Notes: generated by a model not told the origin, from the letters alone. A stretch of DNA of 64,000 nucleotides from Candidatus Saccharimonadota bacterium (GCA_036826375.1 DAISWL010000001.1:40201-104200); one strand, 5' to 3'; counted from the first letter of the stretch, positions 18,437 through 18,517 are shown. Made by a program: numbers and translations.

Positions 18437-18480
18437 TTGACAAAAACATAACAAGTATGATATATATATTAGCTTTTTGA
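18437..18480 (+). promoter_or_regulatory. promoter TTGACA-N18-TGaTATATA with a conserved 23-nt module
   Basis: TTGACA lies at 18437-18442 and TATATA at 18461-18466. The 23-mer tgatatatatattagctttttga (18458-18480) is identical to 50752-50774. Confidence 0.6.
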
Positions 18481-18517
18481 AGCTAAATAATAGTAATCAA
18501 GCAAGAAGGAGAATAAA

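Follow-up and report, generated by a model that had tools for sequence, protein, structure and literature searches.

A 23-nt sequence shared by two unrelated genes

The DNA analysed here (the window) is a stretch of 64,000 nt from the Candidatus Saccharimonadota bacterium assembly GCA_036826375.1 (DAISWL010000001.1:40201-104200). It is ordinary chromosome of about 38% GC, with most of its genes on the minus strand. Two open reading frames (ORFs) on the plus strand, ORF1, which is divergent from a P-type ATPase gene, and ORF2, which is divergent from a peptidase M1 gene, are each preceded by the same 23 nt, TGATATATATATTAGCTTTTTGA. A sequence-only reading of the window had described this sequence as a promoter module common to two unrelated genes. 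Exactly two copies are present as it had reported, at 18458-18480 (site 1) and 50752-50774 (site 2), both on the plus strand, and no third match was found in the 64 kb when up to 3 mismatches were allowed. The module ranks among the longest dispersed exact repeats of the window. As 100 dinucleotide-preserving shuffles gave 0 matches, even at 3 mismatches, no copy is expected by chance. An (AT)5 tract fills about 10 of the 23 nt and the informative common part consists of TG and TAGCTTTTTGA.

Both sites carry a hexamer close to TTGACA upstream of the module (TTGACA and TTGACT respectively). The reported TTGAC(A/T) hexamers are confirmed; they lie 18 and 17 nt before a TATATA that is located within the AT tract, preceded by TG-A, and has A rather than T at -7. 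A TATATT is found 21-22 nt after the -35 hexamers. The related box that had also been described further downstream, CAAGCAAGA, is present at both sites but is only marginally over-represented: 3 copies are found in the window versus 0.95 expected, and 4% of the shuffles reach 3. In other assemblies and contigs (L numbers), synteny at both sites is unchanged in all the relatives recovered. The site 1 module is kept in 8 further assemblies, and the L001-L004 lineage has TGATATAAATATATTAGTTTTTTGA in its place. The 11-nt block TTGACTTTTTT, which contains the -35 hexamer of site 2, is also found in L050, L067, L068 and L088.

Predicted organisation of the promoters

Sites 1 and 2 were compared with four other AT-tract promoters (L050, L088, L068 and L067) and with four ordinary ones (L063, L064, L084 and L085) for their promoters and first hairpins (Table 1). 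In the aligned promoters the -35 hexamer, its distance to the TG and the TRTG motif are conserved and the spacer sequence has diverged, which is the pattern that would be expected for functional promoter elements. The ordinary promoters, which belong to the same cassette family, are of the TRTGn-TAnnAT type; there the hairpin starts 6-8 nt after the -10 hexamer and is followed by the invariant TTGACAAG. In the AT-tract promoters, the hairpin starts at YAGC, directly after the tract. Site 2 and L050 both have TTGACTTTTTT-N9-TG(AT)nTAGCTTTTTGA, and CTTTTTGATTGAG of site 2 resembles CTTTTGTTGAG of L084 and L085. The promoter and the start of the leader at site 2 are homologous to those of the RAGATH-10/hammerhead cassette family described below.

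The first hairpin varies between lineages in a manner that keeps its pairing. At site 1, the L001-L004 lineage combines C-to-T in one hairpin arm with G-to-A in the opposite arm, giving TAGTTT/AAACTA. Between L067 and L088, CAGCAU is replaced by UAGCGU opposite an identical AUGCUG arm and pairing is kept via G-U. Because of the hairpin position and of these pair-preserving changes, TAGCTTTTTGA was read as the start region and 5' hairpin arm, and the TGnTATATA register was preferred. We infer that the 23-mer is a sigma-70/sigma-A-type promoter core together with the first bases of the transcript. In this organisation, the TG would be an extended -10 element, (AT)n would supply the -10 hexamer TATATA 17-18 nt past a consensus -35 with the remainder of the tract running into the discriminator, and TAGCTTTTTGA would hold the start region as well as the 5' half of the stem of the first hairpin in the mRNA.

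Length variation of the AT tract

A property that the sequence-only reading had missed is the hypermutability of the AT tract, which is a simple-sequence repeat. Among 15 independently assembled contigs covering site 2, the tract is (AT)5 in 6 and (AT)6 in 9, with 0 other differences over about 440 nt upstream, and either length is found on both ORF2 alleles. The related cassette lineages L088, L068 and L067 have 5, 6 and 7 AT units respectively. At site 1, the tract is interrupted by AA in the L001 lineage. A third AT-tract promoter was found upstream of an orphan ORF that has no Pfam match (56999-57427). Its -35/-10 spacer is 15 nt long in the window and in 7 other contigs, and reaches the optimal 17 nt with (AT)6 in L092. 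Three of the four (AT)≥5 tracts of the window are located in these three promoters.

Slippage at sites 1 and 2 would shift the distance from the -10 hexamer to the start and to the hairpin, while slippage at the third promoter would shift the -35/-10 spacing. We infer that both kinds of shift would act on expression, tuning or switching it in the manner of contingency loci. Literature searches on phase variation or promoters in Saccharibacteria found no report.

Table 1. Coordinates and composition of the promoter, leader and gene features. Positions are those of the window unless a contig is named.
Feature	Position	Strand	Description
ORF1	18518-18844	+	108 aa, lineage-restricted orphan
Site 1 -35 hexamer	18437-18442	+	TTGACA; 15 nt before module TG; 18-nt spacer to TATATA 18461-18466
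Site 1 module	18458-18480	+	TG; (AT)5 18460-18469 containing TATATA; TAGCTTTTTGA 18470-18480
Site 1 5'-terminal hairpin of ORF1 mRNA	18470-18485	+	TAGCTT-tttg-AAGCTA, predicted by minimum-free-energy fold
Site 1 CAAGCAAGA box	18498-18506	+	Overlaps Shine-Dalgarno AAGGAG 18506-18511; not strictly conserved, L001 has CAAGCAAAA
ORF2	50954-51340	+	128-aa zinc-ribbon protein, uncharacterised, mainly actinobacterial-type family
Site 2 -35 hexamer	50732-50737	+	TTGACT, inside TTGACTTTTTT; 14 nt before TG; 17-nt spacer to TATATA 50755-50760
Site 2 module	50752-50774	+	Exact repeat; (AT)5 at 50754-50763
Site 2 leader	50764-50953	+	About 190 nt; fold z-score -3.95
Leader, first hairpin	to ~50818	+	TTTTTGA/TCAAAA (fold)
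Leader, CAAGCAAGA box	50826-50834	+	From sequence
Leader, 13-bp stem	50843-50855 with 50898-50910	+	From fold
Leader, GAAA-loop hairpin	50915-50930	+	From fold
Site 2 Shine-Dalgarno	within 50940-50948	+	GAGGAG, from sequence
36-nt perfect palindrome	51325-51360		Overlaps ORF2 stop; T-run follows on minus strand
Third AT-tract promoter	56937-56963	+	TTGACA 56937-56942, aataaTGA, (AT)5 56951-56960, TATAAT 56958-56963; upstream of orphan ORF 56999-57427
Second module, copy 1	603-632	+	TTGACA-N18-TAGTAT, TATGC upstream; before orphan ORF 687-1280
Second module, copy 2	35975..35947	-	TTGACA-N17-TAGTAT; before orphan ORF 35025-35897
Second module, copy 3	33476..33448	-	TTGACA-N17-TAGAAT; heads ~330-nt transcript without long ORF, terminator-like hairpin near 33105-33135
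Promoter, site 1			TTGACA aaaacataacaagta, TG(AT)5, then TAGCTTTTTGA
Promoter, site 2			TTGACT tttttccctattat, TG(AT)5 or 6, then TAGCTTTTTGA
Promoter, L050			TTGACT tttttatacatatg, TG(AT)6, then TAGCTTTTTGA
Promoter, L088			TTGACT tttttctcttagta, TG(AT)5, then TAGCGTTTTGT
Promoter, L068			-35 and spacer as L088, TG(AT)6, then CAGCATTTTGT
Promoter, L067			-35 and spacer as L088, TG(AT)7, then CAGCATTTTGT
RAGATH-10-like/hammerhead, L050	777-831 and 1340-1417	-	
RAGATH-10-like/hammerhead, L063	2918-2994 and 3501-3555		
RAGATH-10-like/hammerhead, L064	2912-2992 and 3816-3858		
RAGATH-10-like/hammerhead, L067	3503-3547		

Complete promoters precede accessory genes in the window

For comparison, an upstream stretch of 110 nt was listed for each of the 68 ORFs of the window. 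Most transcription units have TATAAT without a -35 hexamer, and this TATAAT often directly precedes a TAAGCTTA/TAAACTTA motif followed by the start codon (TATAAT-TAAGCTTA-ATG). Only ten TTGAC-N16-18-TAnnnT sequences occur in the window. Apart from a possible rpmA promoter that lies within the gene before it, those that are intergenic precede orphan ORFs (687, 35025 and 36260), two toxin-antitoxin pairs and an ORF-less transcript. With the three AT-tract promoters, the set grows by another three orphans. Since they precede orphans, toxin-antitoxin pairs and an ORF-less transcript, complete promoters mark accessory genes in the window. The sequence-only reading had stated that its proposal would fall if the module were the generic promoter of the genome; in the window it is not, most genes having TATAAT only.

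A second module had been proposed as well, and its three copies are indeed found (Table 1). They have in common TTGACAT and TTATGCTAG(T/A)AT, with spacers of 18, 17 and 17 nt. The shared part is essentially promoter consensus. We regard this module as being mostly a -35 hexamer and a TRTGn-extended -10 element, and not a separate portable element.

A tandem array of 3.3 copies of a 46-nt unit, each with an inverted repeat, occupies 32889-33038, just downstream (minus strand) of the 33105-33476 transcript; the sole Rfam match of this minus-strand transcript is a weak Yfr10, which falls on the terminator. An exact 56-nt direct repeat (36099-36154 and 36766-36821) lies just 3' of the adjacent minus-strand orphan ORFs 36260-36715 and 36887-37462, and its upstream copy contains the TTGACA of the ORF 36260 promoter.

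A third copy and the ribozyme-associated cassettes

The genome_contigs and metagenome_contigs collections were scanned for the 19-mer, and viral_contigs for the 17-mer and the -35+TG pattern. All matches except one, L050, are chance matches in unrelated organisms. L050 is contig APMI01003093.1 (52% GC), which belongs to a different, Saccharimonas-like genus of Saccharibacteria. Its promoter, TTGACTTTTTT-atacatatg-TG(AT)6TAGCTTTTTGA, corresponds to the -35 block of site 2 and to the module with one extra AT unit. Behind this promoter come a leader of 180 nt and a 150-aa ORF of about 63% GC, located between GDPD and thioredoxin-reductase genes. This ORF is unrelated to ORF1 and ORF2. The closest members of its family are from Saccharimonas/Saccharibacteria, homologues are found in Streptomyces, Xanthomonas and other phages, and the genomic neighbourhood is different in each lineage. 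The module thus heads a third unrelated cargo in another genus, and this cargo family occurs in varying contexts.

Rfam searches at E-value thresholds, with scores below the gathering cut-offs, detected a RAGATH-10-like leader and, just after the stop codon, a type III hammerhead in four independent loci (L050, L063, L064 and L067). Both elements are at the same relative positions and the catalytic core of the hammerhead (CUGAUGAG...CGAAA) is intact. At sites 1 and 2, Rfam gave no match to RAGATH-10 or hammerhead even at E≤1. Among the genes associated with RAGATH-10 (RF03147) and Hammerhead_3 (RF00008), L050 and the L067/L088 lineage use the promoter type of the window sites. The features common to them and the window sites are limited to the promoter and the initial ~20 nt of leader. 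No literature on RAGATH-10 or hammerheads in Saccharibacteria was found.

As a separate observation, these Saccharibacteria cassettes are composed of a promoter, a 5' hairpin, the invariant TTGACAAG, a RAGATH-10-like leader ending in the Shine-Dalgarno sequence, a GC-rich phage-like ORF and a type III hammerhead. An upstream CACAAGRUGAG can pair with CUCAUCUUGUG, which otherwise pairs near the Shine-Dalgarno sequence; this arrangement suggests a switch.

Properties and origin of ORF1 and ORF2

Both cargo genes had been described as G+C-rich orphans. This holds for ORF2, whose GC content is 0.54 and 0.55 at third codon positions (GC3), against about 0.38 and 0.35 for the genome; it is only weakly true of ORF1, which has a GC content of 0.46 and a GC3 of 0.34 that is typical of the genome. 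All-against-all BLASTP of the window orphans found no relatedness.

ORF1 has 100% identity with a hypothetical protein encoded by a metagenome-assembled genome of Candidatus Saccharibacteria. Among 5.8 billion proteins it is represented by 2 clusters, i.e. one besides its own, and it has no match in Pfam, PHROG or NCBIfam, nor any phage match (PHROGs, tblastn). Its AlphaFold2 model (predicted local distance difference test, pLDDT, of 40) is too poor for use. Comparison of ORF1 with L001 (2346-2678) showed 27 nonsynonymous and 3 synonymous differences, corresponding to a ratio of nonsynonymous to synonymous divergence (pN/pS) of 2.97, as well as an in-frame 6-nt indel; the pN/pS of the neighbouring ATPase and PIN genes is 0.02 and 0.12. 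These values suggest that ORF1 is either under diversifying selection or unconstrained.

A 75-nt imperfect direct repeat (84% identity; 18841-18914 and 19639-19710) brackets a PIN/Phd toxin-antitoxin pair, which appears to have been inserted with a duplicated 3' end of the FtsJ/TlyA-like gene. In some strains, e.g. L007, another gene takes the place of the nearby ParE pair.

ORF2 has 959 remote homologues/family representatives, and four of its Cys are invariant. Outside the lineage, its nearest relatives are from Acidimicrobiales and from a 72% GC pafBC-tatAC-helY locus (Actinobacteria). Residues 1-70 are modelled by AlphaFold2 with pLDDT >95 and the model has no PDB match. Pfam, NCBIfam, PDB profile search and Foldseek gave generic zinc-ribbon similarity only as to function, and there was no phage match (PHROGs, tblastn). 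The site 2 leader is 100% identical in all relatives, and no known RNA family of Rfam covers either window leader. GC steps up at ~50905. The final ~45 nt before ORF2 are similar to the 5' UTR (untranslated region) of an actinobacterial homologue. Because of this rise and this resemblance, the native part was taken to be the promoter and ~130 nt of the leader. ORF2 is, by its composition and relatives, a foreign gene of actinobacterial type lying with ~45 nt of its own 5' UTR behind an AT-rich, putatively native promoter and leader. The recruitment that the sequence-only reading had suggested fits this gene.

The allele of ORF2 differs from that of L013 by a patch of ~75 nt (51024-51100) containing 32 substitutions (43% divergent) within 2.3 kb of identity. 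In the patch, synonymous sites are saturated (pS 0.97) with pN/pS 0.25, and the window allele is AT-richer (GC 0.47 vs 0.59). This patch looks like gene conversion from a distant homologue. Because of the synonymous saturation and the pN/pS of 0.25, it was interpreted as a recombined divergent allele of a real coding gene. A diversity-generating retroelement was rejected for the same reasons and because the changes show no adenine specificity. The palindrome that overlaps the ORF2 stop codon (Table 1) probably serves the convergent ABC-transporter gene as its terminator.

Evaluation of the possible explanations

The whole of these observations is best explained, with a confidence slightly better than even, by a non-generic core of promoter and leader start placed on unrelated accessory units, in which a slippage-prone AT tract would tune or switch expression. 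The third copy and the varied contexts of its ORF family fit a promoter that moves along with single-gene accessory units or is used by them again. It would be the standard expression head of such autonomous units and would have spread among them by descent or recombination. The proposal of a portable promoter on unrelated cargo is partly supported, by the non-generic nature of the module and by its third cargo in another genus; no mobilisation machinery was found.

Several points weigh against this explanation. As to the identity of the copies, the site 2 tract is (AT)6 in 9 of the 15 other assemblies, so that the 23/23 match partly reflects the state of the tract; the exact TAGCTTTTTGA is known at only three loci; and site 1 has the common 23 nt only, without the -35 block of the other copies, to which it may be related by descent or by convergence. 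The genome and metagenome scans, which were incomplete and overlooked the known copies L006 and L017, say little on copy number. As to the promoter itself, a strict consensus scan (TAnnnT, 16-18 nt after the -35) calls neither site 1 nor site 2 because TATATA lacks a T at -7, and TATATT offers an alternative -10. The predicted hairpins of site 1 and L050 have energies no better than those of shuffles, and both L001 changes fall in AGCT sites, which are possible mutation hot spots. As to switching, no variation of the tract is seen at site 1 among 9 contigs, and length polymorphism between assemblies is no proof of reversible switching within a clone.

The alternative -10 just mentioned leads to a different register, in which TATATT at the 3' end of the tract would be the -10 hexamer, TAGCTTTTTGA the discriminator and start, and the module would end at +1. 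All transcribed sequence would then be cargo-specific and tract length would set the -35/-10 spacing, as at the third promoter, which clearly uses its tract as a spacer. Unlike TATATA, TATATT has both the conserved A (-11) and the T (-7), and the identity between copies stops right after TGA. We nevertheless find this register unlikely: it imposes spacers of 21-23 nt in every copy versus the 17-nt optimum, it leaves the conserved TRTG and the near-constant -35-to-TG distance (14-15 nt) without a role, and the position of the first hairpin in the ordinary cassette promoters, 6-8 nt after the -10, matches TGnTATATA. The same hairpin bears on another possibility, in which a common repressor or activator would bind TAGCTTTTTGA, alone or together with the AT tract, and the identity at three loci would be due to selection on protein-DNA contact and not to common descent. 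Site 1, site 2 and L050 have the 11-mer without any difference although their -35-to-TG spacers have diverged, the 11-mer covers the start site as repressor operators typically do, and TAGCTTtttgAAGCTA of site 1 is palindromic. Such an operator seems improbable to us, since related promoters alter the sequence and keep the pairing (TAGTTT/AAACTA in L001; CAGCAT vs TAGCGT, with G-U, in L067 and L088). The compatibility with G-U points to recognition of RNA, not DNA; moreover, the element is not palindromic at site 2 and L050 and no regulator gene adjoins either window site.

The module could also be the end of a small mobile element or a landing pad for site-specific insertion of cargo. In each of the three loci the shared sequence breaks off sharply at ...TTTTTGA, cassettes of the L050 family occur in different neighbourhoods across genomes with a Y1 (IS200/IS605-type) transposase 2 kb from one of them, and both window ORFs lie in variable, recombining regions. 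However, no transposase, integrase or recombinase was found near either site within the window, and neither unit is bracketed by inverted or direct repeats, target duplications or a common 3' end; the synteny of both sites is, besides, fixed in all relatives sampled. The chance of a mobile junction is hence rated as low, and the common mobilisation mechanism envisaged by the sequence-only reading gains no support from these searches. Coincidental identity of two AT-rich, low-complexity promoters is barely conceivable. Although 10 of the 23 nt are (AT)5, TTGAC, TG and TATA are generic and the genome has about 38% GC, the shuffles gave no match, the non-repetitive 11-mer stands in the same register beside the tract, and the 11-mer, tract and -35 block recur together in the independent 52% GC contig L050. 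Shuffles and L050 copy refute chance for practical purposes.

Returning to the promoter core with a slippage-prone tract, a much broader picture can be drawn, which we put forward as a long shot. Saccharibacteria might possess a standard, exchangeable expression head (consensus -35, TRTG, slippage-prone (AT)n and the 5' arm of a protective hairpin) behind which genes captured from actinobacterial hosts and phages are plugged in. An ultra-small epibiont would thereby gain contingency genes that switch stochastically, and there would be a mechanistic link with the RAGATH-10/hammerhead cassettes.

Comparison with known systems and significance

The fimbrial hifA/hifB promoters of Haemophilus influenzae are reportedly phase-variable through a (TA)n tract between -35 and -10. 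The promoters described here are similar in having an AT/TA tract in a putative sigma-70-type promoter, with whole-unit length differences between otherwise identical strains; at 56937-56963, where the tract sets a 15- or 17-nt -35/-10 spacing, the layout is exactly that of hif. At sites 1 and 2, in contrast, the tract overlaps the predicted -10 into the discriminator and the -35-to-TG distance is fixed. The tracts are also short (5-7 units) and the cargo consists of small cytoplasmic-looking proteins, not of surface structures. On/off expression characterises the hif promoters and is hypothetical for those of the window.

Morons of temperate phages are autonomous promoter-ORF-terminator units of atypical base composition located between conserved genes. 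The units of the window resemble them in consisting of one small ORF each, which has a complete promoter of its own and lies between core genes in the opposite orientation; the foreign composition of ORF2 and of the L050 family, which has phage homologues, is a further similarity. They differ in that no prophage is recognisable, the flanks being chromosomal housekeeping genes (P-type ATPase, TlyA/FtsJ-like methyltransferase, peptidase M1 and ABC transporter), in that unrelated cargo share a promoter core, and in that one family has a structured leader and a self-cleaving ribozyme.

Extended -10 promoters of the TRTGn type are found in Gram-positive bacteria, and 5'-terminal stem-loops stabilise mRNAs such as those with the ompA, aprE and ermC leaders. 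Here too, a consensus -35 is present, TATG, TGTG or ATTG directly precedes the -10, and a hairpin is located at or a few nt from the predicted 5' end in every member examined. By analogy, the first hairpin may have a stabilising role. The difference is that the -10 would here be TATATA inside a repeat tract.

To our knowledge, almost nothing is known of transcription control in Saccharibacteria and candidate-phyla-radiation bacteria. In one such genome, complete -35/-10 promoters are reserved for accessory genes, one of which is of host-phylum origin, and one putative promoter core is reused across unrelated cargo and genera. The new element is the slippage-prone AT tract, which by analogy places these promoters beside the classical simple-sequence-repeat contingency promoters. 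If the tract alters expression, it would give a first hint that these epibionts have contingency-type switching, which matters for understanding how an organism with a genome of only ~1 Mb deals with hosts and phages. The module is also a candidate strong, tunable promoter for new genetic systems of the phylum, and the RAGATH-10/hammerhead connection is an entry point for studying ribozyme-associated genes whose function is unknown.

Other repeated motifs of the window

The 8-mers that follow many TATAAT hexamers are very abundant. TAAGCTTA has 85 copies in the window, ~42-fold over expectation, and TAAACTTA/TAAGTTTA has 129 copies, ~20-fold (examples at 16482-16497, 18391-18405, 56757-56773 and 63561-63575). 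The TAA[AG][CT]TTA pattern occurs 222 times (3.5/kb), with 24% of the copies in intergenic sequence and 76% in genes, where they are found only in frames that avoid the TAA stop. It often lies directly between TATAAT and ATG (TATAATTAAGCTTAATG). Its density resembles that of DNA uptake sequences, and the AGTT/AACT variants of its AGCT suggest deamination at AGCT.

Two further exact repeats were noted. A 26-nt direct repeat, TGCATAAATGCGTAGCAAATTGTTGG (38568-38593 and 39532-39557), adjoins two genes of PadR-family regulators and may be a shared operator. An identical 22-nt GC-rich palindrome, CCCCTCTCCAACTGGAGAGGGG, is found at intergenic positions 42333-42354 and 56789-56810 and is probably a shared terminator hairpin.

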